Assembly (NCBI GenBank): GCA_030167865.1
Contig: JALAGF010000333.1
Coordinates: forward strand, 1-64,000
Source: Craspedostauros australis
Taxonomy: Eukaryota
Direction of reading: 5' to 3'
DNA: 64,000 nucleotides
Shown here: positions 959 to 45,873 of the stretch, piece after piece
Layout: every line of letters starts with the position of its first letter
Position numbering within the stretch: position 1 is the stretch's first letter
Translations under genes and position numbers: made by a program
The notes under the pieces: model-generated
Database searches by the model: none
What the model saw: only the letters and a program-made list of their open reading frames with translations
Told to the model about the DNA's origin: nothing

Positions 959-3553
959 ATGCATCCATACAGCCTCTCCATGAACACCAAGATGAGCGCA
1001 CACCGTGAATCGGAACCACATGCAGAACACATGGCGAAGAGTGACCCATATCGATTCCTGAAGGCGAACGATGAAGCTTTGAGCGAGTTGAAGAAGCAGC
1101 TGGTTGATCCAGCATCGCTGCTCTCATTCGGTGACTTCGACAAGCAGCTCAATGCCATCCTCACCACGAACCGAACTGTCAAAACCACCTACGACTCTGA
1201 GTTTAGGGATGGTCAGGATGGCACCAAACCAGCCAACAAGTTCCTTTACGATGCCATCCGATGCCAAGTGCTCTTCAACGACCGCGGGATTTGGAATCAC
1301 AAGCTGGATGAGGCCGCGATGAGAGAGAAGTTGAAGCCTCACCCTCAAGAACTCCACAAGGGTGTGCAAGGTGCGAGAGACATGATCATTGCAAGTGTGA
1401 GAGGCTTTGACCGCACTCCGTCTCAGATCTCCTCTGATTGCGAACGTTTCGTCACCATGTTCCCATCCAACCTCCTTTTCAAGTGGCTCAAATGGGAGGA
1501 ACATGCGAGCAAGATCATCGGTCACATCCATGAGCCAGACCACAGCAGCAAGGCTGATACAGCCAGCCCCGTTGGGGTAGTCAAGCTCCGGCCAAAGAAA
1601 ATTGCAAAACGGCCGGTGTCCTTTCCACCCCGGTATCTTGAGATTTGCGTTGGAACCCGGTATGGGACAACTACCGAGAGAACGAGCTACATTGGAAAAG
1701 GCGATTCGAGACTCAAGAAGTCTATCTATGGGCTGGACCGTCTACGCTTGGATCGGCCAGACCGGTCAGAATACAACCGCGATATGTTTCAAGATCCCAA
1801 AATGTTTGTATACCTTTCTGCAAGCGGCACAGGGAAGAGCATCGATCTCGCAGCGAGCTCCTACCTTCGCAAATGCTGTTTGACTATGATGCTGAGCATC
1901 GAAGAAGACATTCCTGCATGCAAGGACCTGCATATGTATTCCGAACAAGTTCTCGAGTTCCTGAAAAAGCCCATCCACGAAGTTGCAAAGAGGCATTCCA
2001 AAGTCATCAAGAAGATCAACACATACTTGACCGTCATGGATGAAAGCTCTAGGATCAAGAAAACCGAGAGCTGCGGGCCAGACACCGCAGGCGAACAAGT
2101 CACTTACATGATCGCGATTGACAATGCATACCACCTGGCAAACCTTGTTAATATGATCGCGAAATCCGCCCAAGACAGCTCTTTTGAACGTCAACTCGCA
2201 GAATACATCTCGGAGGGCTGTGGTGGCGCCGTAGCACAGCAGGAACTTGAAAGGGTGAGATTTGCGCACTACAAAGTGCAATTCGCCGTCGTGACGAATG
2301 GCGTAGTCGATTCGCCACAAGTTGGTTGGTCTGATCGAATTGTATACACCAAACCATGTGCCATTCGAGAACCTGAAAAGACTTACAACGACATGTGCGA
2401 ACGGTACAAACGTGATAGAGGTCGGTACCCTTCTTGGGAAGGCCTGAGTGAGCACCCCATCCTGAAGGTCATCGTGATGAACAATCCATCGATGGCATCG
2501 ATCATGCTGTCCGCGCTCTGTTTCAGAACAGCACAGTGCTACCAAACGCCTGCAGGACAGGATGCACTGATTTCCACCGTGTTCCACAACTTCATGCGGA
2601 CCAATGAGATGCAAGCACTGTTGGACCAACCTGGGGATCGGGTAAGAGTGGCAGCACGAGTACTCGCCACACAGCTATACCAGTCGATGTACAAAAAGTC
2701 GCATCCGTACAAAGATGTCACCGCAATTGCGCATGGTATGGAGTACGGTATCGACTTGGAGATCTTCGATGATGAAGACAAGTATCCAATGCGAGAGCTT
2801 GCCCATCGCTACAAGATGACAACACCAACACCGTTCAAAGCGGGTGATTCGGACTGGTATCACATCAGCTGTTGTCTTCCATTCGAGGTTGATCCTGCAA
2901 TGCAGCTCCTATGTATTTGGATGCTGGTGGGATGCAGGGATGAAAGTTCGTTGGAAGGATCTTTGACAGACACGTCTCTTGCGTCCAGGTCGATGGCGAG
3001 CACCCTTGTCAGCTGTGCCATCATGTCTTCCATGGCGGTGAAGGAAACGAGCCGACCTGAAATGAAGATTATTCTGTGGCGCACTCTCGGAATGCGTGCC
3101 AACAGAGCTAACAACAGGCGCCGGGATAGCAGACATGGTAAAAATGCCGAGAGGAGCAAGGAGCAGGTGATCCTTGGCCCCCTTGACGGCGTCATTCCCA
3201 TTTCTACGCCATCCGACTTTGATCATCTCTCGATGTACTTTGAGAAGGATGGAATGACCAGAACTGGTCTGGGTGGCTCGGATGCGAAGGAAGCCGTGAT
3301 CATCGACGTATCGTCCTTGAAGACAGGAAGACAAGGATTCGGGCTCGACGGCACCCTGTTCGAGAGCATCATGTCGATGGGACACAGCAAGTCCAGCACA
3401 AATGACGAGATGGTGGATTCATCGAATGCAACCAGCAGTACTGTTGATGCCTCGAACGAGCTTGACGAAGGCAACGAGGTCACGTTCTTCGGTGCCAAAC
3501 GTGGTAATGCTGGCAGCCTGGGAGACGCCGAGCTGTACATCATCCGTTTCTGA
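959..3553 (+). CDS. Uncharacterised large protein with P-loop NTPase-like motifs (possibly Crinkler/RHS-type NTPase)
   Basis: Intronless ORF; first in-frame ATG at 959 (alternatives 980, 992). Walker A-like FVYLSASGTGKS (~1805-1840) and Walker B-like YMIAIDN (~2105-2125). Family assignment is inference. Confidence 0.5.
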   Translation: MHPYSLSMNTKMSAHRESEPHAEHMAKSDPYRFLKANDEALSELKKQLVDPASLLSFGDFDKQLNAILTTNRTVKTTYDSEFRDGQDGTKPANKFLYDAIRCQVLFNDRGIWNHKLDEAAMREKLKPHPQELHKGVQGARDMIIASVRGFDRTPSQISSDCERFVTMFPSNLLFKWLKWEEHASKIIGHIHEPDHSSKADTASPVGVVKLRPKKIAKRPVSFPPRYLEICVGTRYGTTTERTSYIGKGDSRLKKSIYGLDRLRLDRPDRSEYNRDMFQDPKMFVYLSASGTGKSIDLAASSYLRKCCLTMMLSIEEDIPACKDLHMYSEQVLEFLKKPIHEVAKRHSKVIKKINTYLTVMDESSRIKKTESCGPDTAGEQVTYMIAIDNAYHLANLVNMIAKSAQDSSFERQLAEYISEGCGGAVAQQELERVRFAHYKVQFAVVTNGVVDSPQVGWSDRIVYTKPCAIREPEKTYNDMCERYKRDRGRYPSWEGLSEHPILKVIVMNNPSMASIMLSALCFRTAQCYQTPAGQDALISTVFHNFMRTNEMQALLDQPGDRVRVAARVLATQLYQSMYKKSHPYKDVTAIAHGMEYGIDLEIFDDEDKYPMRELAHRYKMTTPTPFKAGDSDWYHISCCLPFEVDPAMQLLCIWMLVGCRDESSLEGSLTDTSLASRSMASTLVSCAIMSSMAVKETSRPEMKIILWRTLGMRANRANNRRRDSRHGKNAERSKEQVILGPLDGVIPISTPSDFDHLSMYFEKDGMTRTGLGGSDAKEAVIIDVSSLKTGRQGFGLDGTLFESIMSMGHSKSSTNDEMVDSSNATSSTVDASNELDEGNEVTFFGAKRGNAGSLGDAELYIIRF

Positions 3554-3837: not shown

Positions 3838-6800
3838 TCAATCGACCACCACCACCTTGCCGCTGATCTTGTTCTTCGTATTGCGCAGCCGATGCGAATG
3901 ATATTTCTCCTGCAGCTTGTCCAGCCGCCCTTGTAGCGTGCGGTTCAGGCTGACGGTGCGTCCGAGATCCTCCTTGAGCTGCCGCACTTCGGTGTTGTGC
4001 TTGCCTTGCGATGTGAATAGGCGCAATCCACGTCGTGTCGACGATTTGCGATGTAGCACAGCCTTGGAAAACTGGAAGGAGGCACCGCGGTTGCCAGGTA
4101 GACTGCGGCGCACTTCGATGCCCAAGTTCTCGGCTTCATTCAGGAGGGTGTCTTGATCGTCGGAGCCGTCCGGGTCGAGCTGTTTTCCGTTCTTGCCCGT
4201 GGATGATGACAGGGCCGTGCCGGCCGCGGATGATGACAGTGCCGATACGTGCTTCATTTTGGGTATGAAGATGAAACCCAGCGTAGTCATGATGGTGATG
4301 AAGATGATCGAAGCGATGACGATGAACCGCGCGTTGACTTCTTTGCGCACCACGCCGTACAATGGGACTCCCACCACCCAAACCTGGATCATGATGAGCA
4401 GGGTGCCTGCGATCCACAGGCTTTCTGAATACTCCGTGGTGATGCGTCTGCATTCGTAGGCCTGGATCAGCGCGACGAATGCAAACACCAGATTCAGACC
4501 CAGCAGGATGCAGAGGTACAGGATGGCGTGCTGCGAGGTGCAGCGTCCGATCACATCTGGTTCCACCGTGAGGAAGATGTTGTCCTCATGTCGCGCAAAG
4601 GCTTCCGAGCTGCCTCCGTTCGCTTCCACGTAGAAATAGTAGTAGAAGTCGCCGCTGAAGTCGTCGCCGTCTTCTGTTTCCCACACGAATTCCAGCGGCT
4701 CCATGATCATCCAAATGAGCAAGGTGGCGAGGTTCATGGAGAGGATGAAGATGAAGGGGATCAGGACATCCTGCAGCTCCACCTTGATGCGCTGGAAGTA
4801 GTGGCTGCTGCGGAAGATCTGGTTGATTCTCCACGTTTTGGAGAAGAGCGCGGAGAAGGCGATCGAGAAACCGAGGGTGTAGAGCCAGATGGAGGCGTTG
4901 CATGCCACGGCTCCGGAAAGCTGGTGGAAGTCGCGATCGAAACCAAAGAAGAAGATGGAGATGCCCATGATGCAGGTGCCGCCGCAGATCATGTAGAGGA
5001 AGTAGGGTTGGGATGCCAGCACGACGCGTTCGCGGCGGTTGCGAACGACCCAGGCCGCCATGTACAGCGACACGACGATGGAGATGATGGCCAAGGCCCA
5101 ACCTCCCGTCAGGATGACAGGGTCGATGCCCTTCTCGTCGCGTGGGGTCGGTTCGAATTGATTCAACGATTTCTGGTACCAGATGGACATTGGGAGATGA
5201 GGCTTGGTCAGCGGGGTTGGAAGTGGCCGAGCGTCGTGTTGGTCGATGATCGCCTCCCATGATCGTTCGATGCGGGTGGCGATCTGTTGTCTGGATGATC
5301 CCGTGGTTGAATTCTTCTGCAGCGACGTCTGCGTCAGGTATTCTCTTGCGCTGCTGTCCAGCGTGTCCCAAAATTGCATCGCCATGGGGATGCGTGGCGG
5401 ACTGGCGATGTTGGCGTCGGAGGATTGCTGGACCACATCTTCGATGACCGTCGCGTAGTGCGGATAGACGGTGGAAAGGCCATCCAGCTGCGATTGATAG
5501 AGCGGTTGGTGCTGCGTGGATGGAGTTGCGGATTGCGACGCAATCGAGGTTTCGTTGGATCCGGCATCCGTCACGGTAGTCGAGTCCGATGGATCCTGGG
5601 TGCCGATTTGCAATTCGTTGCTTCGCGTGGAGAGGAATTCAAGGAATCGGAAAGCGTGGTGCTGCTGTGCTTTGGCCGTGGTGGAGGAGATGACGCCAAG
5701 CGGCGCGGAGGAGGATGACACGCCGACCTGGTTGATCCAGCCCAGCTCCGCGTCCTGTTTGTTGCATGTGGATTGCGTGCAGGCTGTGAGCCTGTTCTGT
5801 CGCACAATGGTGGATGAACCCGGTATCGAGGCGATGCCGAATCGCTCCGTATCCTCGAGGATGTCCATGGGATATTGGTCTGTGATGGTCATGCCGCACG
5901 TGCCGTCGAGCAGCGCCATCACATTGAGATCGGCTGCAGTGGATGTGAGTTCATCCGGATGGCCGTACATGTGCTGCCCTTCCATCCATTCCAGCACCTT
6001 CGGCAGAGCTTCTTGCAGCTGTATGGGCGACAGCGACTTGTCGGAAATGAGGAGCGCCTTGACCGCGTCGTCCAATGTGCTGTTGTCGAGTGCAGAGCTG
6101 CCGTCCGGATTGTCGTCGAGCTGCAACCAGTAGGCTGCGTCTGCTTGAGATTGCTGATCCGCGCCTGCAGTCGCATCCGAAACGGTCTGCGTCAACGACG
6201 CGAGCATCATGATGGAGAGGTAGGAGTCATCGGAGAGCCGTCCCAAACAGCTTCCGAACGCCGGCGGTGAATGCAAGGCTTCCGCAACGGTGTTGTATTC
6301 CTCCCACGTTCTGGGCGGCTGGTCGATGCCTTTCTGCTGGAACCAATCCTTGCGATAGATGAGGACGAATTGGGAACCGCCGAGCAGGGGGACTGCGTAA
6401 TTGTGCTGGTCGTACTTGGAGGCATGGTTCTGGTAGTAGGGCAAGAGGTTGTCGAGGAAGAATGGTTCCTCCGCCTTGTCGTCGTCGTCGTTGCTGTTGC
6501 TGCTACTATCGCTGCTATCAATATGATGCTGGATGGAGTGGTGGAGGTTGCGAAGGTTCTGGATGGGAGCATTCTGCGCCAGCGTTCCCATCGAATTGGT
6601 TGGCACGATGAAGGCGTCGTAGATCGATGATTGGTCGTAGCTCTGGCGTTGCTGATGCCTGCTGAGCTCCAGCTCGAGCGTTTGGATGTTGGGGAAGGAG
6701 ATGAATTCGATGGTCGGTGGCTTCGTGGACGTCGATGTCGATGAAGCTGCTGCTGCTGTTTGGTTGTTGTAGAGCCCCACGTAGGGTTGCAGAGTGGCTT

Positions 6801-6957
6801 CCATGGCACGCCAGGTCATGATGCGGATGGTGGTTGGAGCTTGGGGCACCTTGTCCTGCTGGAATACTGTATCCACGCCATTCGATCCATCGTTGCCGCC
6901 GCCAGTGCTGCTGTTGCCACCAGTGTTGTTCTCGTTGGTCGGAGCGCAGTCCGACAT
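3838..6957 (-). CDS. Class C (GABA-B-like) 7TM receptor with N-terminal ABC-type solute-binding domain; receptor A
   Basis: First ATG at 6957 (MSDCAP). SBP family 1-like segment YAVPL..LIYRKDWF..PPRTWEEY. Seven hydrophobic helices with class C-type motifs (ASQPYFL, FSKTWRI, YSESLWI, FIFIPKM), then a coiled coil. Confidence 0.85.
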   Translation of the reverse strand: MSDCAPTNENNTGGNSSTGGGNDGSNGVDTVFQQDKVPQAPTTIRIMTWRAMEATLQPYVGLYNNQTAAAASSTSTSTKPPTIEFISFPNIQTLELELSRHQQRQSYDQSSIYDAFIVPTNSMGTLAQNAPIQNLRNLHHSIQHHIDSSDSSSNSNDDDDKAEEPFFLDNLLPYYQNHASKYDQHNYAVPLLGGSQFVLIYRKDWFQQKGIDQPPRTWEEYNTVAEALHSPPAFGSCLGRLSDDSYLSIMMLASLTQTVSDATAGADQQSQADAAYWLQLDDNPDGSSALDNSTLDDAVKALLISDKSLSPIQLQEALPKVLEWMEGQHMYGHPDELTSTAADLNVMALLDGTCGMTITDQYPMDILEDTERFGIASIPGSSTIVRQNRLTACTQSTCNKQDAELGWINQVGVSSSSAPLGVISSTTAKAQQHHAFRFLEFLSTRSNELQIGTQDPSDSTTVTDAGSNETSIASQSATPSTQHQPLYQSQLDGLSTVYPHYATVIEDVVQQSSDANIASPPRIPMAMQFWDTLDSSAREYLTQTSLQKNSTTGSSRQQIATRIERSWEAIIDQHDARPLPTPLTKPHLPMSIWYQKSLNQFEPTPRDEKGIDPVILTGGWALAIISIVVSLYMAAWVVRNRRERVVLASQPYFLYMICGGTCIMGISIFFFGFDRDFHQLSGAVACNASIWLYTLGFSIAFSALFSKTWRINQIFRSSHYFQRIKVELQDVLIPFIFILSMNLATLLIWMIMEPLEFVWETEDGDDFSGDFYYYFYVEANGGSSEAFARHEDNIFLTVEPDVIGRCTSQHAILYLCILLGLNLVFAFVALIQAYECRRITTEYSESLWIAGTLLIMIQVWVVGVPLYGVVRKEVNARFIVIASIIFITIMTTLGFIFIPKMKHVSALSSSAAGTALSSSTGKNGKQLDPDGSDDQDTLLNEAENLGIEVRRSLPGNRGASFQFSKAVLHRKSSTRRGLRLFTSQGKHNTEVRQLKEDLGRTVSLNRTLQGRLDKLQEKYHSHRLRNTKNKISGKVVVVD

Positions 6958-7229
6958 GTTGATTGTTGTTGTGCGTATCGTATCGAGGCTGTGTCTGTTG
7001 TTGTACACGAGTGTGTGTAGCAGTATGTGCCGTCTGCTCGATCTTGTCTTCTGTGTTGTCTCGCAGTTGCCTTGTTGCCTTCTTGTTTTCCTTGCTTTGC
7101 TGACTTCGCGTCGCTATGTCGACCGAAGCAAAGCTCAATGGCAAAATGCGCGTACTTGATGAACCTGAAAGGAAGGATGCGCTGTGTTCCGTACTCGAGT
7201 CGACAGAGATGGTGTCCTGCCAGGCTCCA

Positions 7230-7247
7230 AGAGAGAGAGAGAGAGAG
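7230..7247. repeat. (AG)n microsatellite
   Basis: About 9 AG units read directly. Confidence 0.9.
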
Positions 7248-8350
7248 GTTGGTGAAGGTGTGCTGAGAGAGCGATGGGGCTTGTGCCTTCTCCCCTCTCC
7301 TTGTCCTTCTTCCGTTGCCGCCAACTCCCAAAACGAGACCACCCAACACAACACACAGCCACCGCGCCGTTCCGGCGAAAGAAAAGGCGATGCTCCCACC
7401 ACAAACAAACACAACAACAACGCCAACGACAACAACACACGTGCTTGGACTCATCCGAGTAACACATGCCACTGTTGAGACCAAGCACTGATTGACATTT
7501 TCAGCAGAATGACCGAGCTTACCGAAAGTCACAACCGCGAAAGAACACGACAAAATGGCGGCGTGAGCGATTTTCAGATTCGTTCCGGGTGTGACTGTGA
7601 CATGTGACATGATAAGCGCTGTTCGCCCCCCAACTCAGGTTTTGGGCAAGAAACTACACGACCCACAAAGCAGTTGACACGACACATCGCGAAACGGGCG
7701 CGACAAGCGAACGACAGCGTTCGGCACAAACGGGATAAACCAACGAGGGGGGTCTTTTCGGAAGCAGAAGAACGAACAAAAATTATTGCCGCGGAGAGAT
7801 AGTGCACGAAGCGCTGCACGTGTTGTTACGCGCACCGTGACACTGGAGGTTGACAAAGGAGCAAGTGGGAGCCACGCAGAGAAACACGTAGCAGCAACAG
7901 TGTCCTGGTGAACACCGAGGAGTAGCCACGCACCTGGACAAGACCAACATCCATCAGCTGGAGCTTCCGTCCCTACCTCTCCGTCGATGTCCACACCCTT
8001 CCATCCATCCATTCATCTGCCTCCGCATCCCTGAGTTCGGGCTCCCTCTGAGTCTCCTCTTCATACTCTACTTTGCTCCACTCTCATTGACTTCAAAAGG
8101 CAACCTCCCACCATCAACAGCGACAGCCAGCATCAGCAAGAAGACAGCGAAGAGGGACACCTCCCACCACCATCGCTTCAATCCGACGACGCCCGCACAA
8201 AAAGCACGCGCAAACGATCAGGCTCAAAAGGAACAGACCTGGAGAACGCCAAAAGACCAAACGACGAAGGCACATCCCAGCTTCAAAAAGAGACCTTGCC
8301 ATCGTAGCAACGCCCACCACCACTGTCCCAACAAAGACCATTGGTACAGC

Positions 8351-8395
8351 AACACAACGCAACACAACGCAACACAACACAACACAACACAACGC
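8351..8395. repeat. (AACAC/AACGC)n pentanucleotide repeat
   Basis: aacacaacgc aacacaacgc aacacaacac aacacaacac aacgc, upstream of the receptor B start. Confidence 0.85.
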
Positions 8396-8446
8396 ATCTG
8401 CTATTGCTACCACTTTTACAACGATCTTGCTACTCTTAGATTCATC

Positions 8447-11400
8447 ATGTCGATGCCACGCACCGCAGCAAGCGACAGCATGGAAGGAGGCCACCTGAAC
8501 GGTATCACAGTCACTGACGCCAACTCCGAAACCAAGAGTCATCCTGCCATCCGTGCAACAACATCGGCAGCAGAGCCAGCCGCAGCCGCGGGAGACCATG
8601 CCAACCACCATGCCAACCCAAGCAAGCAAGCATCAGCGACTGCAACATCGACAACAGCGGAAGAAACGGGCGAAGCAACAGGCGAAGGCCAAATGATGAC
8701 GCAAATTCTGCGAACGACAGCCCATTCTGCGCTTGATCAACATGGCGCCCAAAGAGATGCGACGGACACTCATGGCAGCGACGAGGCCAACAACTACCTC
8801 AGCGCAATGGCTCCATCCTCATCCAGCACACAGGCGACGGACGCATCTGCAAGAACAGCCGTCAAAAAGCGCATACAGAGGCCTGCGGCACCCAAAGCAC
8901 ACCCACACGCACAGGCACACGCACAGGCACACCCGCAACATCATGAAGGCGAGCACAATCACCAAGACGACGCCGCTCTGCACCACTCGCAACAACGACA
9001 GGACAGGGAACTGGATGAATGCGAAACCCCAGAAACGACCATCACCCTGGCGCTCGGAAGCTACTTCGACATCACCAACTACGTCCAGTTCCATATCGAT
9101 GCCTACCAAAAGCTGCATCCCGAAGTCAAAATCAACATCAAGGAGATCAACGGGACCAGCACGGACTTTGAGCAGTTCCTGCACCAGTCAACTCTGGAGG
9201 CTGACAGCAGCAGCGTTGATGACGCTTCCACGGACACAAGCACAAGCGCAACCGCAGATGCCAATACCAACACCAACAGCGACGCCATGATGGACGCCGA
9301 TAGCAGCAGCCTGTGGGATGGCGCCATCATCCCTTCTCAGTCCATCGGAACGCTGGTGGAGGCGAACGTGCTTCTCGATATCACCGAATTCACAACATCG
9401 GCTCAAACTATCCGCACGCCAAACCCTTCCCCCGGGTCAACATCGTCAACGTCGGAGCCAGGCTCAGACTCGACCGCAAAGTCATCCACCGCGATGTCCA
9501 TCGATCCGGAACAGCTGCGAAACATACGCGAAAAGCTAGACTGGCCCGATCTCCTGCCGTACCTCAAAAACAATGTCGCCCAGTACAACCGAAGATCCTA
9601 CCTCGTTCCCCTCGATGGAGATACGTTGCAGTTATTCTACAGACCGGATCTCTTCCAAAAGTACAACCAGACAGTCCCCAGAACGTGGGACGAGTACACG
9701 CAGGTCGCCAAGTTCTTTTCCGAACTGCAGGCGGAGCCCATGCTGCACGGATCCTGCATATCACGCAGCTCGCGCTGCAGCAACGCCTACTGGACCAGCA
9801 TGATCCTTGCCACCATGACGCAGGCGGAGGGCACGGAAACCGGATTCCTCATCGACCCGCACGAGCCTTCGATAAGGCCGCTCATGGGGCAGGCCATGAT
9901 GGAGACCCTGCGGCACATCGCCGAACAGACCACCTACGGCCATCCGGACGAAAGCACCACGGCCACCTGCCTCTCCACCAACTTCCTATTCAATCGCGGA
10001 GAATGCGCCATGACCATCAACTGGGGCGACCAGCTGCGAGGCTTGGAGAACGCACCTTACCCCGTGGGCGTCACGCGGACACCAGGCAGCCAGCAGGCGT
10101 TCCACCGACCATCCAACCGATTGAGGGACTGCACCACCAAATCATGCCCCTACGCCACCTACTATGCCGACGACAACATCATGGTCAACCATGTCCCGTA
10201 CGCTGCCTTCGGTGGTTGGTCCGCCGCCGCCTCTGCACAAACGAAGGAGGCGGCCACCATCATGGACTTCCTCGCCTTCCTCTCCAGCTCAGAGCAATCC
10301 ATGCAAGACGTTCTGCCCAACACCCGGTCCAACTTCCTCCAACCATTCCGCTACAGCCATCTGGGGATCAACAATGATCTCTCCATCGGCAGCATTACAG
10401 GCGCAGCCACAAGCACCAACCCGTGGGTGGCACAGGCATCGTACGACGAGCAGCTGATCGCCGAGTTCACGGAAACCATCCTGGACATCAGCTCGCCCAA
10501 CCTTGCCATGGAGTTGCGAACGCCGGAGGCCCTCGAGATTCGTTCGGTCATAGATGCCGAGGTCACCAGCTTCGTCGAATACATCCACGATACCATGAAA
10601 CTGAACGTCACCCTCGATGATGCCGTCTTCGAGCAACTGCGCACCAACACCACGCAGCGCATGGAACGGCGCGTACGGGATGTCGTCTTCACGCTGGACA
10701 TCCAAGAACCAGAGTCGCCGCAGGCATTGTTCAACAAGAACCTCTTCCTCGATTCGTACCAGAAATCACTTGGCATCTTCGTGGAACCTTCCCAGCACGA
10801 AACCAACATCATGAGCTCCTTCCGCTTCGCTGGTTGGGGGCTGGCCGGGCTCATCTGCGGAGCATCCCTGCTCTGCTGCCTCATCGCTGCCGTGTCGTCC
10901 AACCGCCGCGTCATCCGTGCATGGCAACCGTACACCCTGATCCAATGCGGCATGGGATTTTTCTTCATGGGCGGCACCATCGCGCTCCTCAGCCTCGATG
11001 AGTCTCTTGCCAGTGCCGAAGTTCTGGATTACACCTGCATGGCCATTCCCTGGGTCTACATCGTCGGGTTCACGCTCCTCATTTCAGCCGTCTACGCCAA
11101 GATCATCAAGTGTCGGGAACTGCGCAAGGCCCGGCAGACACCATCGACCATCGTGGTGGATTGCAACGCAACGCTCAAACTCACGTTCCGATTCCTGCTC
11201 GTCAATGTCATCCTCCTCACGATATGGACAGTCACTGATCCATTGCTGTGGGTGCGAGAAGAAGTTCCAGACGACTCGGACGAAACGCCATACCAGCTGG
11301 GCGACACGTACGGCGCTTGCCGTGGCGAATTCGCCACATCCTACATTTTGATGGTCATCCTCTTCACCTTCAACCTCTGCCTCTGCACGACTGGAATCGT

Positions 11401-14023
11401 GCATGGGTTCCAAAGCCGACGGCTGGCCTTCGAATTCAAGGAAAATCACTGGCTGCCACTCATCCTCTTCCCCTACGTCGAGTGCTGGATCATCGGCGTT
11501 CCCACCATATTCTTGGTCGACACCGATCCAAGCGGAACATTCGTCGTCATGACGTGCATCATCACGCTTTCCTCCATGAGCTCGCTGCTTTCCTTGTTTG
11601 CACCAATCGAATGGTACATTCGCAAGCACGAAGCAGAGGCCACCACGTACACGAGCCAAATGACGGGCGTCACCAAAACACTGACGACTTTCGACAAGGA
11701 GCAAGAAATCATGGAATACGAAAAGAAAATCGCAATGGTGACCGACGACAACGACCGCATCCAGAAAGAAATCGCCCGACTGCGAAATCTCTTCCGCGAC
11801 GACGATTTGCACGGCGATCGTGGCGGCGATGCCAAGATTCCCTTCCGTAAGCCAAAAGTCGTTGAGAAACCACCAGTGTCGCAGGCCAGGTCAGCGATCG
11901 GATCCTTTCGGGAACCTGCGGCAGCTCCGAGGAAGTCAGCAGCTGTAGGGTCTCCCTTCTTCGTACCTCCCGTCAACAGCTATAACGAAGACAACACGAG
12001 CCACAACAATACCAACAATGACGATGGTGATGGCGACGGCGACGGCGTTGACAACAACAATCACAGCGCTGACGATGACGACGACTACGATCGATTGGTC
12101 ATGAAGGACATTGATGACTACGACGACGACGAGAATGAAGATGTACCAGGAGCACATGGTGATACTGACTGGAACAAGAACGACGACGATGGTGACGATG
12201 ACAAGGGGTTTGGAGGCAGCAAGATGGACACAGATCTGGAGCAAGCACGTCCCGAGTCGTATCCAATGAAGATGCCAAGCACAGAACTATTGTCGGATGC
12301 GCAGGACAGCGCAATCGTGCAACCAAGAGAATTGGCATATGCAAACGACAACACATATATCGAGCAGCAGCAATCGGACCAACGCTTCCCTACACCGTCG
12401 CTGAACGTGCCGCTACCCTATTCCAAACATAACTTTGACGAGGGCAAGGACGATGCAAACTCCGATTATGGCATCGATGTCGACGACGATCCAATGAACG
12501 TCACGCCAAAGAGTCTGACGGGATTGAACAGCACAATCAATGATTCTCTGTCGGTGTACGAAGACTCGCTTGCCAGCACACCCCCTCGCGGATTCGCCAA
12601 GGACGGGATGGCGGACGACACTCCCGTTTCGCGCGGCGGCGTTGAAGATAAAGGGGCGGCCACAAATGAGCTATCTCACTTGACAGCGGAGACACAAGAA
12701 AGTCCGTCATCCTCTGCACGATCATCGCATCACAATGGAGGAGAACAAAAAGATTTGGACTCGGTTGGAGATGATATGAACGTGAGAACACGCGGGTTGC
12801 TCATCCAACCTCTCATGATGAAGAGCTCTGCCGACGACGGCAGCGACGAAGACGAACACAACCTCGAAGAGGAGGAGAAGAATTACGACGAACAGGTCGA
12901 GAGTGAAATTCACGATGATGACCACGATATCGCTGCCGACGACGATGACAACAACGATGGCGGCGAAGATGATCAACCGCAAAATGAGTATGGCCAGCTC
13001 AAGTCCGCGTTGCTGTCCGATAACTTCAGCGTGATCGATGCGACGGTCTCCATGCTGATTGCAGCATTCAAGGGCAAAAGCAGCTACGCAAACGCTACGG
13101 CACCGCCCGACGAAGAAGACGAAGGCAGCGACGACGGTTCCAAGGGTACGAAGCCGAGTTTGACGGATCAATCCGAAAATCCTGCCACCGACGAAGAAAG
13201 CGGGACAGACAACACTGCTGATGGCAATGGCGCTCCATCTGACACGCAAGGTGATGGAGCGGAAGAGGAAGACGGTGTTGACGTTGACGTCGACGTCGAC
13301 GAGGAAGCGCCGAAATCATTCCGAGATCGGTCGACGACGGGAGAGTCCAGCGCAGCTGAAACCAACTTTGATGAAGAACCTGAACCAACCGCGCCAATTT
13401 CGGCGCTTACCCTGCAATCTGCAAACAGTCCGGTGACTATGCAAAATGCAGGAGAACCTTCAGGTGGGGACAAGTTGTCGGAACTCAAGCCACCACCGCT
13501 GAACGGTCTGCAAGGCTTCTTTGATTCTCAGAAGAATGCAAATCCACAACACGCCCTCCCGCCGCTGGCACCTCAGCCCAAGACGATCTCGTTCGGACAA
13601 GATGTGCGTGACGCCCGGTCAACTCCCGCGGGCACCCTGAGTGCTGCGAAGACCCAACCATTTACTTTGGGTGACTGGTCCGCCGTCGGTACTATGGCAT
13701 CCGTCCTAGCCGATGCCTCCGATTCTCAATCTTGTTCCAGCTACGGATCGTACGCAACCAAGGACTCCGCGACTTCGATGGGCGCCACGCGAGCAGCTTC
13801 GGAACTCGACACGCCCCTGTCCAAAGAATTGGACATGCTCGTTGGCAACAAGGATTGGGATGGAGTCAAGCGCGCTGCACAAAAGTTCGAGGCGGACCGG
13901 GTCCATTCCATGAACAATGCTGAGAGCAATCAAACGAGGAGCTCCCTAGAAAACCGGCGACGCAAGAAGCGCGAACTTGAGGCTTTGCGGGATAAGATCT
14001 CGAAGAAGAGCGCCGCACACTAA
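8447..14023 (+). CDS. Class C (GABA-B-like) 7TM receptor with ABC-type solute-binding domain and long acidic C-tail; receptor B
   Basis: First ATG at 8447 (MSMPRT). SBP motifs VPLDGDTLQLFYRPDLF..VPRTWDEY and NHVPYAAFGGWS. Seven TM helices at ~10820-11610, a coiled coil, then a ~750-aa D/E-rich tail. Confidence 0.85.
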   Translation: MSMPRTAASDSMEGGHLNGITVTDANSETKSHPAIRATTSAAEPAAAAGDHANHHANPSKQASATATSTTAEETGEATGEGQMMTQILRTTAHSALDQHGAQRDATDTHGSDEANNYLSAMAPSSSSTQATDASARTAVKKRIQRPAAPKAHPHAQAHAQAHPQHHEGEHNHQDDAALHHSQQRQDRELDECETPETTITLALGSYFDITNYVQFHIDAYQKLHPEVKINIKEINGTSTDFEQFLHQSTLEADSSSVDDASTDTSTSATADANTNTNSDAMMDADSSSLWDGAIIPSQSIGTLVEANVLLDITEFTTSAQTIRTPNPSPGSTSSTSEPGSDSTAKSSTAMSIDPEQLRNIREKLDWPDLLPYLKNNVAQYNRRSYLVPLDGDTLQLFYRPDLFQKYNQTVPRTWDEYTQVAKFFSELQAEPMLHGSCISRSSRCSNAYWTSMILATMTQAEGTETGFLIDPHEPSIRPLMGQAMMETLRHIAEQTTYGHPDESTTATCLSTNFLFNRGECAMTINWGDQLRGLENAPYPVGVTRTPGSQQAFHRPSNRLRDCTTKSCPYATYYADDNIMVNHVPYAAFGGWSAAASAQTKEAATIMDFLAFLSSSEQSMQDVLPNTRSNFLQPFRYSHLGINNDLSIGSITGAATSTNPWVAQASYDEQLIAEFTETILDISSPNLAMELRTPEALEIRSVIDAEVTSFVEYIHDTMKLNVTLDDAVFEQLRTNTTQRMERRVRDVVFTLDIQEPESPQALFNKNLFLDSYQKSLGIFVEPSQHETNIMSSFRFAGWGLAGLICGASLLCCLIAAVSSNRRVIRAWQPYTLIQCGMGFFFMGGTIALLSLDESLASAEVLDYTCMAIPWVYIVGFTLLISAVYAKIIKCRELRKARQTPSTIVVDCNATLKLTFRFLLVNVILLTIWTVTDPLLWVREEVPDDSDETPYQLGDTYGACRGEFATSYILMVILFTFNLCLCTTGIVHGFQSRRLAFEFKENHWLPLILFPYVECWIIGVPTIFLVDTDPSGTFVVMTCIITLSSMSSLLSLFAPIEWYIRKHEAEATTYTSQMTGVTKTLTTFDKEQEIMEYEKKIAMVTDDNDRIQKEIARLRNLFRDDDLHGDRGGDAKIPFRKPKVVEKPPVSQARSAIGSFREPAAAPRKSAAVGSPFFVPPVNSYNEDNTSHNNTNNDDGDGDGDGVDNNNHSADDDDDYDRLVMKDIDDYDDDENEDVPGAHGDTDWNKNDDDGDDDKGFGGSKMDTDLEQARPESYPMKMPSTELLSDAQDSAIVQPRELAYANDNTYIEQQQSDQRFPTPSLNVPLPYSKHNFDEGKDDANSDYGIDVDDDPMNVTPKSLTGLNSTINDSLSVYEDSLASTPPRGFAKDGMADDTPVSRGGVEDKGAATNELSHLTAETQESPSSSARSSHHNGGEQKDLDSVGDDMNVRTRGLLIQPLMMKSSADDGSDEDEHNLEEEEKNYDEQVESEIHDDDHDIAADDDDNNDGGEDDQPQNEYGQLKSALLSDNFSVIDATVSMLIAAFKGKSSYANATAPPDEEDEGSDDGSKGTKPSLTDQSENPATDEESGTDNTADGNGAPSDTQGDGAEEEDGVDVDVDVDEEAPKSFRDRSTTGESSAAETNFDEEPEPTAPISALTLQSANSPVTMQNAGEPSGGDKLSELKPPPLNGLQGFFDSQKNANPQHALPPLAPQPKTISFGQDVRDARSTPAGTLSAAKTQPFTLGDWSAVGTMASVLADASDSQSCSSYGSYATKDSATSMGATRAASELDTPLSKELDMLVGNKDWDGVKRAAQKFEADRVHSMNNAESNQTRSSLENRRRKKRELEALRDKISKKSAAH

Positions 14024-31033: not shown

Positions 31034-33292
31034 TCATGGAAACAGCTCCGGATTTGCCTCCATCGCTTCAAGCAGGGCATCATCAGACAGGTCCGAGAGA
31101 GCATTCGTCTGCGGTGAAGGATAATCATCCAGATTCAATGCCAACAGAGCCTTCTCGAATTCCTCCTCTTGCCAGGCCTCGTACTCCTGCTGAATCTGTG
31201 TCAACGCATCTTGCGGTATGCTCAGCGGCACTCCGCGTCCCACGCATTCGCGATCATGACAGCCCTGCACGCAGGACCACGTCTTGAAATCGATCGTCCA
31301 GTAGATGTTGTTGCTCCTGTGCTCGCGGCCCACCATCTCGCAGTATCGATTGCGGCTGATCTGGTACATGATACCAACCGTCTTCTTGCTGTTGTCGTGA
31401 TCTTCTTGCAACGACCACGCACGGATGGATCCTCGCGTGCCGCCACGGCATGCCAACACATCCAGCACGTACCGATCCAATCTCGGGATCGGCGTGTTGA
31501 CCGTGTTGCGGATGTTGAACACGTGCTGTTTGCTTGCTTGCCGCGGCTGCGGGTGCGTTCCCATGAATTTGCGAATATTCTCCTCGCCTTGGGCGTCATC
31601 GTGCGGCACATCGTACAATTCCACCTTCTTGGTGTGGTACAATGGAATCACCAACGTGCGTTCCAGAGCTTTGGCATACGGTCTCCAGTCATTGGTCGCG
31701 ACGAAGTCTTGCATCGACATCACCGTCCCCTCCGCTTTCGTCTGCGATGACATAATGTCGATGCCAGGATATTCGTTCGTCTTGGATACGCGCAGTACGG
31801 CATCCTTCCCGAATTTGGAACTGCCCAGCACACGAAACAATCGATTGCGCGTGTACACGCCCAGATCCACAAAGCATGTGGGCTTGTTCTTGGTTTCGAC
31901 GAAGAGGTGCTTGCCAAGGTAGTTGGATTCCAATGTTTCAGTCGCCACCCCATCCGCCAAACGACCGATGAAACGTTTGACAAATCGTCCGACGGCGATG
32001 GCATCAGGGAACAGCTTGGGCAGATCCAGAATCCAATGACGCGACATCTTCTTGTCGGACGAGCTGTCGAGATCGATGAGAACGTCGCGGGGTTCCACCT
32101 TGAGTTGGAGGTGCTGTTCCAGTTCTCGGAAGAGTTCGTCCCGAAACTCTAGCAAGAGCCGTTCGTCATCAATGCCGGGATTGTGTGGCTTGGAATATTC
32201 CAAATCAAAGTACAATCGGCACGGTGTATTTTCATGAATCAATTCGTACAGATGCTTGTTGTAGGTTTTGCGCCAGTAGTGATCCATCATGCGACCGAAA
32301 TGGCCGGTGATGTACTTGCGTTTGCCGTTGGCCTTTTCGATGCTGAAGACTCGTGGGATCATGCTCCACAGTGGTTCCATAGGACCCTGATCGGATTTTG
32401 TGACCGTGCCATCATTAACATCATCAGCGCGAGTATCGGCGTCGCCATCTTTGTCATCGTCTTGCCGTTGCGTTCGATGTAGCTGATGCTTCTGCTGCAG
32501 CTCTTCTTCCTGCTGCTGCAGCGCCAAGAATTGTCGCCTGTACCGTTGCCGTTCGTTGTGCGATGCCGGCGATGCACCAGCCTGCATCATGGATCGTTTG
32601 TGGCTCGCGTCGTTGTCCAATTCGAAGTCGTTGCTGGATGAGGACATGCCGGAACAAGGCGAATCCGGATGATTGTGCGCGTTGGCGTCCGTGTTGCCCG
32701 TCACGAGCTCTTCGAGATGATCCAACGCCATGCTCTGCGTCGGCCAGACCTTGAGATCCGTGAGGTCGCGAAAGACCGAACGTTGGCAGCTCAAGCGGGC
32801 CAGATGCTGTCGTTTCTGTTCGATGAGCACGTTGGCCTCGATCCTCTGCGGCAGATCCTTGAGGACGTCCGGCACGTGTCGCGGCGTTGCCTTTTGGGAG
32901 CGATCGCGTTTGGTGTGACCGTAAAATGCCTTGGGCGATATGCCGTGCGATTTGGTGCTCATCGTTGGCGTGTGCTTGTTGGAAGCGCGTGGACGCGTGG
33001 AGTCGTCTTGTCTCCAATCATCGTCGTCGTCGTCGTCCGCATCGTCGTCTGTATCGTCATTGCCAGCGTCGCTATCTCTGTTGTTGGTGTTGTTGTTGAT
33101 GTTCCTGCTGTCCTGATGTTTGCGAGCGGCTGCATCATTGGTTGGTCTGCCTGCAGAGTTTGCCACGTTTGACACAGCTGTATTGGGAGACTGGTTCTTG
33201 CTCGTACAGCTCGTGGTAATCTGCTCGTCTGTTGACAGATGATGATGAGCTGGGGTGTTGGGCGTTGTCATGCCTTCCCTTGTCTCGATCAT
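31034..33292 (-). CDS. PRIMPOL: DNA primase-polymerase PrimPol
   Basis: AEP motifs CRLYFDLE, SRH, FVDLGVYTRNRLFR. Zn finger CEMVGREH..CHDREC. Acidic C-terminal LSDDALLEAM motif. Start uncertain. Confidence 0.92.
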   Translation of the reverse strand: MIETREGMTTPNTPAHHHLSTDEQITTSCTSKNQSPNTAVSNVANSAGRPTNDAAARKHQDSRNINNNTNNRDSDAGNDDTDDDADDDDDDDWRQDDSTRPRASNKHTPTMSTKSHGISPKAFYGHTKRDRSQKATPRHVPDVLKDLPQRIEANVLIEQKRQHLARLSCQRSVFRDLTDLKVWPTQSMALDHLEELVTGNTDANAHNHPDSPCSGMSSSSNDFELDNDASHKRSMMQAGASPASHNERQRYRRQFLALQQQEEELQQKHQLHRTQRQDDDKDGDADTRADDVNDGTVTKSDQGPMEPLWSMIPRVFSIEKANGKRKYITGHFGRMMDHYWRKTYNKHLYELIHENTPCRLYFDLEYSKPHNPGIDDERLLLEFRDELFRELEQHLQLKVEPRDVLIDLDSSSDKKMSRHWILDLPKLFPDAIAVGRFVKRFIGRLADGVATETLESNYLGKHLFVETKNKPTCFVDLGVYTRNRLFRVLGSSKFGKDAVLRVSKTNEYPGIDIMSSQTKAEGTVMSMQDFVATNDWRPYAKALERTLVIPLYHTKKVELYDVPHDDAQGEENIRKFMGTHPQPRQASKQHVFNIRNTVNTPIPRLDRYVLDVLACRGGTRGSIRAWSLQEDHDNSKKTVGIMYQISRNRYCEMVGREHRSNNIYWTIDFKTWSCVQGCHDRECVGRGVPLSIPQDALTQIQQEYEAWQEEEFEKALLALNLDDYPSPQTNALSDLSDDALLEAMEANPELFP

Positions 33293-44427: not shown

Positions 44428-45873
44428 ATGAATGCCCTCATCCACTACCACCAAACTGCCCACGCTCCCTACCGTAGCTTGGAGAGGGCCAAGGAATGGA
44501 GGCGAGAAAACCCAGATGCCGACGTCAACACGAATACCACCGATGATGGCTACACTTGGATTCACATGGCATCCAAAGAAGGACATTTGGATGTCGTGAG
44601 GTATTTCGTAGAGTCATGCAATGGTGACCCCACGGTGCCAAGCGACGATGGCACCACTGCGCTGCATTGCGCTTGTATCCATGGTTATCTGAATGTTGCA
44701 AAGTACCTGGTGGAAGTGTGTGGAGTAGACATCGACAAGCAAGCCAAGTCAGGAAATACTGCGCTTCATTCAGCATGTCGGCATGGCCGCTTGGCTGTCG
44801 TGAACTACCTGGTGGAATCTTGCAAAAGTGACCCGAACGCTGCCAACACTGACGGGGATACCCCGCTTCATCGTGCATGTCGCTTTGGCAATTCGAATGT
44901 CGCGAAGTATCTCCTCACGTCACGTAAAGCCAACATCGCCGTGCGCAACAACTCCAATCAAATCCCGCTGGACTACGCGAAGGTTTACCAGCGCACTGAT
45001 ATTCTCGCATTCTGGGCATCCCATTGCATGGATCTCCTCTCTGAACAGATGGAAGATACGCAGCAGCAAACTGCAGATGAAGCTTCAGATGAGGCTCCAG
45101 CAACAACTTCCGACGACCGCTCCGGCTTGTCCACCAAGATCGACATCGGCCAGGACCGACTCAACGCCATCCATACCGGGGCTTTGGCCGACGTCATCTT
45201 TTTGTGCGGTGAAGGCGACAAGCAAGAAGCAGTCAAGGCAAACAGTGCAGTTCTGCTCGTCACCGTACCATCCATCAAGGCGCTCATCGCATCTGGCATC
45301 AAAAATCAACCATCACCATCCAGGAGTCCTGGTGAAACGGTCGTCAGTACCACCGTCCCTCTCACCAGCCTTCATCCAAGGCATGTCCGATACGTCCTCA
45401 AGTGCATCTATTCAGGCGACGTATCCTTCGAAGATGGTTCCAGTATGACCGCGAAGGACAATCTCGAGCAGCTGGTACTCGTCGCCAACCAATTCGGCTT
45501 CTGGAGACTCAAGCTCATCATCGAGGCAGAGCTCGTCCACAAGCACCTCACAAACGCCACCATGATCGATCTGTTGCTCTTCGCTCATCGAAACAACTGT
45601 CTTTTGCTGAAGGAGGCAGCAGTCGCGATGGCATCCAAAGACGGCAATGTTTTGTTTGATCATCCCCATAGCGGCAAGCTGATTCCAGAAACTGCTCTGA
45701 TGGGGGAGATCTTCGCAAAGCGTCACGTAAACCCGGCAGTCATTGGTGCCACGGATGAGTATAGTTCCATGTCCATGATGGAGATGTACAAGGCGCTGGA
45801 TGAAGTGACCTTCACAACGATGGAATCGTACTTGGATCGAGCATCTTTGCTGGAATTCATGCGTACCCACTAA
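44428..45873 (+). CDS. Ankyrin repeat + BTB/POZ protein (copy 1)
   Basis: Ankyrin repeats (GTTALHCAC, GNTALHSAC, GDTPLHRAC). BTB ADVIFLCG..ANSAVL..VLKCIYSG..ANQFG..LKLIIEAEL. BACK-like helices LLLFA..NCLLLKEAA. Confidence 0.88.
   Translation: MNALIHYHQTAHAPYRSLERAKEWRRENPDADVNTNTTDDGYTWIHMASKEGHLDVVRYFVESCNGDPTVPSDDGTTALHCACIHGYLNVAKYLVEVCGVDIDKQAKSGNTALHSACRHGRLAVVNYLVESCKSDPNAANTDGDTPLHRACRFGNSNVAKYLLTSRKANIAVRNNSNQIPLDYAKVYQRTDILAFWASHCMDLLSEQMEDTQQQTADEASDEAPATTSDDRSGLSTKIDIGQDRLNAIHTGALADVIFLCGEGDKQEAVKANSAVLLVTVPSIKALIASGIKNQPSPSRSPGETVVSTTVPLTSLHPRHVRYVLKCIYSGDVSFEDGSSMTAKDNLEQLVLVANQFGFWRLKLIIEAELVHKHLTNATMIDLLLFAHRNNCLLLKEAAVAMASKDGNVLFDHPHSGKLIPETALMGEIFAKRHVNPAVIGATDEYSSMSMMEMYKALDEVTFTTMESYLDRASLLEFMRTH

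Follow-up and report, generated by a model that had tools for sequence, protein, structure and literature searches.

Two divergently transcribed class C receptor genes with solute-binding ectodomains in the diatom Craspedostauros australis: candidate subunits of a GABA-B-like receptor

The receptor gene pair

Two large receptor genes lie head to head in a stretch of 64,000 nucleotides from the genome of the diatom Craspedostauros australis (assembly GCA_030167865.1, contig JALAGF010000333.1, positions 1 to 64,000; this whole stretch is called the window below). Each encodes a domain of the kind found in bacterial solute-binding proteins (SBPs), followed by the seven-transmembrane (7TM) domain of a G-protein-coupled receptor (GPCR) of class C and by a coiled coil. 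Class C receptors are the textbook obligate dimers among GPCRs, and the GABA-B (gamma-aminobutyric acid type B) receptor is the textbook case of a division of labour between subunits; the question considered here is whether the two diatom proteins, A and B, may divide their labour in a similar way. To our knowledge, functional knowledge of class C receptors comes entirely from animals and Dictyostelium, and we know of no ligand for any GPCR of a pennate diatom.

3838..6957, minus strand: gene A, 1039 amino acids (aa), stop included; SBP domain, class C 7TM domain and coiled coil
8447..14023, plus strand: gene B, 1858 aa, stop included; SBP domain, divergent class C 7TM domain, coiled coil and long acidic tail
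6958..8446, no strand: intergenic region between the start codons, 1489 bp; candidate bidirectional promoter

In the open reading frame (ORF) listing and translations of the window, both genes are uninterrupted and divergent, with start codons that face each other across 1489 bp. An earlier note, made from the letters of the window, had described a head-to-head pair about 1.5 kb apart in which each member carries an SBP domain, a 7TM domain and a coiled coil. That description is borne out, and the motifs quoted in it can all be found in the translations: VPLLGGS, NQVGVSSSSAP, SQP, KTWRI, SES and FIPKM in A, and VPLDGDT, NHVPYAAFGGWS, WQP, KIIKC and FAPIE in B. The region between the genes (6958..8446) holds solely short, unsupported ORFs by the ORF list. 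It also contains a (GA)n run and short repeats of the CAACA/CAACG type, shortly before the B start codon (7236-7252 and 8340-8390).

Pairwise alignment identifies A and B as paralogs, with 24% identity over 870 columns (E 9e-47), and by this measure the duplication that separates them is an old one. There is no third copy of the SBP-7TM receptor family within the 64,000-nucleotide window. Both proteins have orthologs in the diatom Stauroneis constricta, P0003 for A (44% identity) and P0009 for B (52% identity).

No N-terminal hydrophobic signal peptide is present in A (6840-6957, minus strand), in B (8447-9016, plus strand, where some 190 residues are of low complexity) or in five orthologs, transcript-derived sequences among them, and an ectodomain of 560-770 aa in which four cysteines are invariant has to be exported despite this. 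A missing 5' exon or insertion by a signal anchor could account for the absence.

The receptor family and its clades

An exhaustive profile search for relatives returned 15,066 matches at E<=0.001, most of them to a single domain, of which the best 150 were listed. From these and earlier matches, 35 proteins that span the SBP as well as the 7TM domain were taken into the family alignment, with fragments and single-domain matches set aside, and separate maximum-likelihood (ML) trees were built from the 7TM columns and from the SBP columns. One protein, P0014, was omitted from the trees because its gene model breaks the 7TM domain.

Both trees recover two clades to which the window genes belong. 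The A clade has seven rows, with SH-aLRT support of 96 from the 7TM columns and 92 from the SBP columns, and lies inside a larger group, supported at 99, that includes P0041 and P0046. The B clade has 13 rows plus the basal P0028 and is supported at 99 in both trees. A further set of receptors, here called group C, consists of P0029, P0031, P0033 and P0034 and includes the 'GABA-B receptor-like protein' of Skeletonema marinoi (KAK1737261.1). The deep branching among the A, B and C groups is resolved by neither tree.

All members of the A and B clades that carry species names come from pennate diatoms. The two kinds of paralog occur together in all three species in which this could be checked: the genome studied here, Stauroneis constricta, whose transcriptome contains the A-like P0003 and the B-like P0009, and Nitzschia sp. 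Nitz4, which has the A-like P0030 and the B-like P0012.

Gene models vary in length within the B clade. Nine of them (P0010, P0011, P0013, P0020, P0022-P0024, P0026 and P0028) stop 36-60 residues past the seventh transmembrane helix (TM7), and P0010, P0011 and P0013 end just behind an HPTV/HPEV motif at which the long-tailed P0012 runs on into its coiled coil. The short versions look like products of introns or truncated models and not like genuine short forms.

A type II solute-binding fold in both ectodomains

5278..6834, minus strand: A ectodomain, MalE-type (type II) solute-binding fold, residues ~42-560
9029..10756, plus strand: B ectodomain, MalE-type solute-binding fold with two low-complexity inserts, residues ~195-770

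The ectodomain of A matches the Pfam families SBP_bac_8, at 42.4 bits against a cutoff of 27, and SBP_bac_1. An AlphaFold2 model of residues 40-605 has a mean pLDDT (predicted local distance difference test) of 86.4 and a pTM (predicted template-modelling score) of 0.88. In a Foldseek search its best match was the trehalose/maltose-binding protein 1eu8, with a template-modelling score (TM-score), normalised to the target, of 0.72 and an E-value of 5.5e-14, and MalE3 was matched at 0.75. As modelled, then, the A ectodomain is a complete SBP that folds with confidence.

The B ectodomain matches no Pfam SBP family at E<=1, and its two inserts are probably the explanation. An SBP match was present in 13 of 13 other B-clade rows scanned (E<=0.01), at or over the family cutoff in 12 of the 13. 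Sequence searches of the PDB matched B best to SmoF, the sulfoquinovosyl-glycerol-binding protein, and to 13 other sugar SBPs. Its AlphaFold2 model has a mean pLDDT of 88.5 and a pTM of 0.88, with low confidence at model residues 79-89 and 139-149, and Foldseek again returned SmoF as the best match (8s5b; TM-score, target-normalised, 0.75; E 1.6e-15). Because the PDB sequence matches, the Pfam matches of its clade and the confident SmoF-like fold agree, the B ectodomain can be assigned to the SBPs as well.

Pfam gave no ANF_receptor or Peripla_BP match in A or B, so neither carries the type I Venus flytrap domain. Both ectodomains are members of the periplasmic-binding-protein superfamily and are of its type II (SBP_bac_1/8), as opposed to the type I ANF_receptor flytrap that is usual in class C.

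Sugar-contact residues and ectodomain divergence

6370..6390, minus strand: A residues P190-Q196 (PLLGGSQ), derived state, by family alignment, at the sugar-binding Asp site
5695..5733, minus strand: A residues N409-G421 (NQVGVSSSSAPLG), the Trp of FGGW replaced, with P419 at that column of the family alignment
9608..9625, plus strand: B residues P388-T393 (PLDGDT), ancestral pocket motif by HMMER alignment, with D392 on SmoF Asp113
10187..10222, plus strand: B residues N581-S592 (NHVPYAAFGGWS), ancestral motif by HMMER alignment, with W591 on SmoF Trp276

SmoF provides a reference for the ligand pocket (here and below, papers are cited for the accessible parts of their text). In this protein Asp113 and Trp276 hold the C2 hydroxyl of the sugar, Trp276 through a hydrogen bond, and further contacts are made by Gln12, His13, Ser43, Asp67, Gly166, Thr220 and Arg345 (PMC8940949). 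Our comparison covers the two contact positions that could be mapped, Asp113 and Trp276. In the HMMER alignment, Asp113 falls on D392 of B, the second Asp of PLDGD, and Trp276 on W591 in the FGGW motif, a stretch that is weak when taken alone. At the same two columns of the family alignment the A clade has Gly or Ser in place of the Asp and Pro, Ala or Thr in place of the Trp. The A clade reads GS(Q/L) or GNQ where the B group, group C and the bacterial relatives show DGD.

The bacterial relatives come from a metagenome search in which 80 loci were kept and 58 were treated as bacterial-type, with an SBP ORF extracted from 57. The closest of them, from soil and other metagenomes, share 30-33% identity with the diatom ectodomain over about 350 residues. 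All 57 have DGD, which could be counted because the site lay outside the search pattern; GGW was not counted because it was part of that pattern and the count would have been circular. These SBPs are encoded in sugar ABC-transporter operons of the CUT1 family, together with two permeases and a MalK-type ATPase and, in one of the two loci examined, an RbsD/FucU mutarotase.

L026, 9653-14467: bacterial CUT1 operon examined
L049, 8456-13319: bacterial CUT1 operon examined (both among loci L016-L080)

The SBPs of loci L016-L080 are near-identical to the diatom ectodomain at the PLDGDFHMLYYRTD motifs. The similarity of the bacterial relatives and their operon setting suggest that the ectodomain of the receptors is itself of bacterial origin.

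By these comparisons the pocket state of B is ancestral and that of A derived. That the SBP motifs of B represent the family consensus had been put forward in the earlier note, and the alignment and the DGD of all 57 bacterial relatives now show this to be correct. The ancestral state of its pocket also points to a carbohydrate-type solute as the ligand of B.

The ectodomains differ as well in how fast they have changed. Between clades, ectodomain identity is 32.5% for B and C, 25.3% for A and C and 26.1% for A and B. For the comparison within clades, pairs of A and pairs of B proteins were matched so that both cover identical species splits. Here A ectodomains were less alike than B ectodomains each time, at 40.5 versus 55.4% (p 3e-6), 31.7 versus 44.5% (p 7e-5) and 29.6 versus 44.0%. 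Path lengths in the ML tree (1.11 versus 0.60 and 2.02 versus 1.59 for matched species pairs) put the divergence of the A ectodomain at about 1.3-1.9 times that of B. A similar picture emerges from the 108 ectodomain sites that are invariant in group C. The A clade keeps 37 of them, while 58 are variable, nine are fixed on a new residue and four are gappy; the B clade keeps 65, with 37 variable, five new and one gappy (37 versus 65 kept, Fisher p 2e-4). As far as sequence comparison can tell, the A-clade ectodomain is evolving faster, is under relaxed constraint and is without both of the mappable ligand contacts.

The same SBP subtype, with PLDGD and FGGW, is also found in two metagenome proteins, P0017 and P0018, where it is fused, along with one transmembrane helix, to the domains of a protein kinase and of a guanylate cyclase. 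To judge from their sequences, one sensor module is joined to different outputs in these proteins and in the receptors.

Seven-transmembrane domains

4258..5100, minus strand: A 7TM domain, residues 620-900, canonical GABA-B-type signature (Pfam 7tm_3)
10823..11605, plus strand: B 7TM domain, residues 793-1053, remodelled at the first intracellular loop (ICL1), the end of TM3 and ICL2, the start of TM6 and the end of TM7 (Pfam 7tm_3)

Both 7TM domains are recognised by Pfam 7tm_3 (cutoff 33.5), A at 133.1 bits over positions 12-251 of the 251 in the model and B at 74.1 bits over positions 8-250. Among the 27 of 35 aligned rows that the 7tm_3 scores cover (the other eight belong to other groups), the clades do not overlap: 119-133 bits in the A clade (7/7) and 71-105 bits in the B clade (14/14), with group C at 100-135 and P0041 and P0046 at 141-143.

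When the family 7TM profile was compared with the PDB, the best match was the human GABA-B subunit GB2 (190.6 bits, E 3.4e-55), ahead of GB1 (150.8 bits), GPR156 (108.1) and the metabotropic glutamate receptor mGlu2 (102.8). Taken singly, the A domain matches human GABA-B R2 best (77 bits, against 62 for GB1), and the B domain gives 46 bits with GB2 and 28 with GB1. Since A and B are both nearer to GB2 than to GB1, neither is the ortholog of one particular animal subunit; the two are diatom-specific clades of a single SBP-fused family, with no one-to-one correspondence to GB1 and GB2.

In GB2, K574 (position 3.50) and D688 (6.35) form an ionic lock, R577 (3.53) touches G-alpha at its C-terminus, and the G protein is contacted mainly by the basic ICL2 (PMC9360005). 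Signature positions in the diatom proteins were set from GB2 alignments and from that paper.

Ser of the ICL1 motif SQP: A clade 7/7, B clade 2/14
K3.50: A clade 7/7, B clade 14/14
R3.53: A clade 4/7, B clade 1/14 (Lys in two more)
E6.35: A clade 7/7, B clade 13/14
Lys of the TM7 motif PK: A clade 7/7, B clade 11/14

A itself has the Ser of SQP, K3.50, R3.53, E6.35 and PK, and its KTWR is identical to K574-R577 of GB2. B has Trp for the ICL1 Ser, keeps K3.50 and E6.35, and has Lys at 3.53 and PI for PK; the change of the TM7 Lys to Ile is shared by B, P0009 and P0021. The altered motifs are conserved inside the B clade, so that the cytoplasmic face of the B 7TM domain is best described, from its sequence, as remodelled and conserved in its new form, with no disabling demonstrable. 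Group C, for its part, combines the ectodomain motifs of B (PLDGD, NWG, AFGGW) with the 7TM motifs of A (SQP, SK.WR, E.SES, PK).

Identity between clades in the 7TM domain is 33.7% for A and C, 27.7% for B and C and 28.4% for A and B. Between matched species, B and A score 70.1 versus 65.2% (p 0.23), 35.7 versus 37.1% (p 0.79) and 37.6 versus 35.2%. These figures bear on the central claim of the earlier note, that the two receptors are reciprocally degenerate. The motif tables and the 35-protein alignment uphold the direction of the asymmetry and show that it is clade-wide and not confined to one pair. Reciprocal degeneracy itself is not borne out. On one side the A-clade ectodomain is relaxed and has lost its contacts, and conservation per domain, proposed at the time as a check, is indeed unequal in the ectodomains (40.5 versus 55.4%, p 3e-6); on the other the 7TM domains are conserved to a similar degree, that of B having changed no faster than that of A (p 0.23 and 0.79).

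Coiled coils and tails

3892..3996, minus strand: A C-terminal coiled coil, residues ~988-1022, with a core Asn (heptad scan, 6/8 hydrophobic core)
11708..11791, plus strand: B coiled coil, residues ~1088-1115, with a core Asn (heptad scan, 7/8)
11807..13660, plus strand: B acidic low-complexity tail
13661..14005, plus strand: B conserved C-terminal module, residues ~1739-1853 (~115), no known family

The coiled coil of A contains the motif N..L...L..L...Y, 104 residues past the PK of TM7, which is present in five of the seven A-clade members. That of B contains N..I...I..L...F, 47 residues past TM7, in all five long-tailed members of its clade. The two share a common layout, N-x2-hydrophobic-x3-hydrophobic-x2-hydrophobic-x3-hydrophobic, and the family profile alignment extends into the coiled coil of GB2. 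No convincing coiled coil was found in the tails of group C (4/4, score <=5/8). Inspection by hand revealed no clear pattern of charge complementarity between the coiled coils of A and B.

The whole tail of B measures 738 aa, with a net charge of -90 and 14% Asp, and shares short conserved islands with that of P0009, as judged by eye. The module at its end has no Pfam match and is better conserved than the 7TM domain of B between the same species (46 versus 35.7%).

A possible division of labour between A and B

The asymmetry between the clades fits a two-subunit receptor without proving one. In the reading that we favour, A and B would be two kinds of subunit in a GABA-B-like family of dimeric class C receptors whose ectodomain is of the CUT1/MalE sugar-binding type in place of the Venus flytrap. 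Their common ancestor would have been self-sufficient, of the group C kind that is canonical in both ectodomain and 7TM domain (as in Skeletonema). After the duplication, B would have kept the ancestral, carbohydrate-type pocket while the cytoplasmic face of its 7TM domain was remodelled and the long acidic tail and end module were gained. A would have lost the mapped sugar contacts, its ectodomain drifting under relaxed constraint, and would have retained a GB2-like G-protein face (KTWR, E6.35 and PK). In a B:A heterodimer, then, B would bind a sugar-like solute, the silent but folded ectodomain of A would serve as a structural partner, and the canonical 7TM domain of A would activate the G protein by trans-activation; the matching membrane-proximal coiled coils would aid assembly.

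The architecture, both folds, the paralogy, the asymmetry at clade level, the co-occurrence and, in this genome, the adjacency are established; the class of ligand, dimerisation, the choice of coupling subunit and co-regulation are inferred. Since receptors of class C are obligatory dimers and GABA-B assigns binding to one subunit and coupling to the other (PMC5719802), the heterodimer is the most economical account of the pair. We give the B:A heterodimer with trans-activation, as the leading reading, a probability of roughly 40%. Its fullest version, a convergent GABA-B-style obligate heteromer in diatoms with B as ligand subunit, A as pocket-less coupling subunit, assembly through the coiled coils and co-regulation from a bidirectional promoter, is put forward more tentatively.

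Evidence against the heterodimer and alternative explanations

Several observations weigh against this division of labour, and most of them concern the 7TM domain of B. Its ICL2 still has four basic residues, and the B clade keeps K3.50 in 14/14 rows, E6.35 in 13/14 and PK in 11/14. The motif of the A-clade 7TM domain is in turn not uniform, with R3.53 in four of seven rows. By sequence, the 7TM domain of B is as constrained as that of A, and at 44 7TM sites invariant in group C and P0041/P0046 the difference is not significant (28 kept by A, 22 by B, p 0.28). The end module of the B tail has 46% identity to that of the Nitz4 protein P0012 over 119 columns (E 8e-26). Because the 7TM domain is constrained, the ionic-lock residues are kept and the tail ends in a conserved module, B may be able to signal by itself.

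Other points concern the ectodomain and the features thought to favour assembly. The derived pocket residues of the A clade are conserved (GSQ in 5/7 rows, GS in 6/7), which would also fit a new ligand. Pfam SBP scores overlap between the A and B clades and are reversed in the window pair (42.4 bits for A, none for B); as a measure of ectodomain decay they were dropped as ambiguous for this reason. A coiled coil is also present in P0041 and, by eye, in P0006, an unrelated GABA-B-like receptor from a diatom, and is therefore no special property of the A/B pair. No conserved RXR retention motif was found within 160 residues past TM7. Two of the five long-tailed B-clade members have one there, in differing places; in this stretch B of the window has RLR and the Stauroneis constricta and Nitz4 orthologs are without RXR.

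Linkage of the two genes in Nitzschia sp. Nitz4 is doubtful as well. The B-like protein of this species has the EukProt number 6880, its gene lying on a scaffold 43,938 bp long, and the A-like protein has the number 7164, a distance of 284 entries. Provided that the numbering reflects the order of the genes, the pair is not adjacent in that species, and by this indirect evidence linkage is probably not conserved in it. The B-clade metagenome loci (L001-L004 and L006) are just 4.1-5.6 kb long and uninformative in this respect. Long eukaryotic contigs (L010/L012, L053 and L061) carry a group C gene as the single family gene within +/-10 kb. It is unlikely by chance that two members of one family should be adjacent; the adjacency may simply have been left behind by a tandem inverted duplication.

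Many of these observations would be expected if A and B were independent homodimeric receptors, like mGlu or the calcium-sensing receptor CaS, with different ligands or effectors and an adjacency left over from an old tandem inverted duplication. B would then be a sugar-type sensor with another effector or scaffold, and A would sense something else or be allosterically modulated. We regard this explanation, the main rival of the heterodimer, as quite plausible, if short of even odds. It would account for the purifying selection on the 7TM domain and tail of B with the ionic-lock residues kept, for the conserved new pocket and complete fold of A, and for a linkage that is probably absent in Nitz4. 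It gains further from the kinase-cyclase fusions, in which the same SBP subtype works in non-paired contexts, and from Phaeodactylum tricornutum, where over-expression of GPCR1A or GPCR4, receptors that may lie outside the A and B clades, singly changes the morphotype (PMC7452957). What it gives no reason for is an A ectodomain that is relaxed at 58 of 108 invariant sites and yet fully retained, and it leaves unexplained the complementary changes of the two paralogs and their joint retention in three of three species.

It is improbable, in our estimate, that A is instead a fast-evolving receptor for a species-specific cue, such as a pennate pheromone or an exudate, with a new pocket under diversification and B functionally unrelated. 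An ectodomain that diverges ~1.3-1.9 times faster than that of B while the A 7TM domain stays conserved is what this would predict, and the named members of both clades are all from pennate diatoms; the loss of conservation is, against this, domain-wide (58 variable sites versus nine fixed on a new residue) and not confined to a few pocket positions.

That one gene is a decaying, non-functional copy might be suspected from the missing Pfam SBP match and low 7tm_3 score of B or from the missing canonical pocket residues of A, and is very improbable given ORFs intact over 1039 and 1858 codons, two ectodomains that fold confidently, and orthologs with the same clade motifs in several species, transcript-derived ones included; a literal pseudogene was rejected on the strength of the intact ORFs, the clade-conserved motifs and the orthologs.

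Relation to known receptors

GABA-B is the closest parallel to the heterodimer proposed here. The 7TM domains of A and B are nearest to GB2 and then to GB1, a cysteine-rich domain is absent and a coiled coil follows TM7; one paralog has and the other is without ligand-contact residues, as reported for GB1 versus GB2 (PMC5719802). The differences are also considerable. The ectodomain of A and B is of the type II, MalE-like kind in contrast to the type I Venus flytrap of GABA-B, the two are diatom-specific paralogs with no conserved RSRR/RXR motif, and the copy predicted to be ligand-competent, B, has a strongly conserved 7TM domain and tail. For A and B, moreover, the heterodimer is a proposal. 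The taste receptors T1R1/T1R3 and T1R2/T1R3 are likewise class C paralog heterodimers that sense sugars or amino acids (PMC5719802), a likeness of function only, and unlike A and B they combine a type I flytrap with a cysteine-rich domain and have no coiled coil.

The combination of a bacterial binding domain with a class C 7TM domain has been described before. In the fungus Allomyces macrogynus, eight receptors of the 'Glutamate family' join SBP_bac_1 to 7tm_3 (Krishnan et al. 2012, PMC3251606) and so resemble A and B in having a bacterial solute-binding domain ahead of a class C 7TM domain; the likeness is one of architecture, the fungus belongs to another kingdom, and the accessible text describes no paired or asymmetric paralogs. 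The suggestion in the earlier note of a different binding domain is thus right as to its type, a type II SBP versus the flytrap, and does not hold as a claim of novelty.

Diatom class C-like receptors have been placed basal to GABA-B, some with N-termini like ABC-sugar SBPs, and have signature positions K/R in TM3, E/D in TM6 and PK in TM7 (Port et al. 2013, PMC3727952). Over-expression of single GPCRs gives phenotypes in P. tricornutum (Fu et al. 2020, PMC7452957). In the accessible text, 'heterodimer' does not occur in Port et al. and 'dimer' does not occur in Fu et al. Not all diatom receptors with a sugar-type N-domain are of one kind: that of P0005 is a Peripla_BP_4 domain of the type I fold, unlike the type II domain of A and B. 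In P. tricornutum, GPCR3 and GPCR4 (Phatr3_J44131 and Phatr3_J44133) have identifiers that almost follow one another and are induced together on solid medium (PMC7452957), and they may be another adjacent GPCR pair.

Within the diatoms the group C receptors come closest, sharing the SBP and 7TM domains and combining B-type pocket motifs with A-type 7TM motifs; unlike A and B they are canonical in both domains, have no convincing coiled coil and occur as a single gene within +/-10 kb. The bacterial CUT1 SBPs (SmoF, trehalose/maltose-binding protein and MalE) share the fold, with TM-scores of 0.72-0.75, and the motifs PLDGD, PRTWxEY and FGGW. They differ in that A and B are fused to a 7TM domain, contain eukaryotic inserts of low complexity and an additional helical stalk, and in that A is without the Asp and Trp contacts. 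No ABC permease is encoded by the large ORFs of the window, and the SBP of A and B is not a free partner of permeases.

Diatom class C-like receptors and the SBP_bac_1 plus 7tm_3 architecture were thus already known, and what appears to be new, on present sequences, is the pairing of asymmetric paralogs. A search of the open literature, which took in main texts without supplements and left subscription journals aside, found no publication in which SBP-fused class C paralogs are described as paired or asymmetric, and none that deals with diatom heterodimers. If A and B do form a heterodimer, the same solution would have arisen independently in a photosynthetic stramenopile on a type II SBP sensor. 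The family would then provide a before-and-after series for the evolution of heteromers by complementary loss, with group C self-sufficient and A and B specialised, and the pair would be a candidate sensor of dissolved carbohydrate-type molecules in pennate diatoms. If they are independent receptors, they would be two more members of a reported architecture, and the useful part would be the map of which clade keeps the ancestral pocket.

Other genes of the window

By Pfam, the remaining large ORFs of the window are unrelated to the receptors and include a TruD/Pus7-like enzyme, proteins with ankyrin (Ank) repeats and a BTB domain, MOSC, HMG-box and WD40 proteins, and others. An ORF of 864 aa directly beyond the 3' end of A (959-3553, plus strand) has no Pfam family at E<=0.001. 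Another, of 752 aa (31034-33292, minus strand), has a primase-type Herpes_UL52/UL70 motif at residues 640-684 (27.9 bits) and possibly encodes a PrimPol-like protein. The two genes for ankyrin-repeat and BTB/POZ proteins (44428-45873 and 49742-51232, both on the plus strand) are paralogous; some 4 kb separates them, and a WD40 gene lies in that interval.

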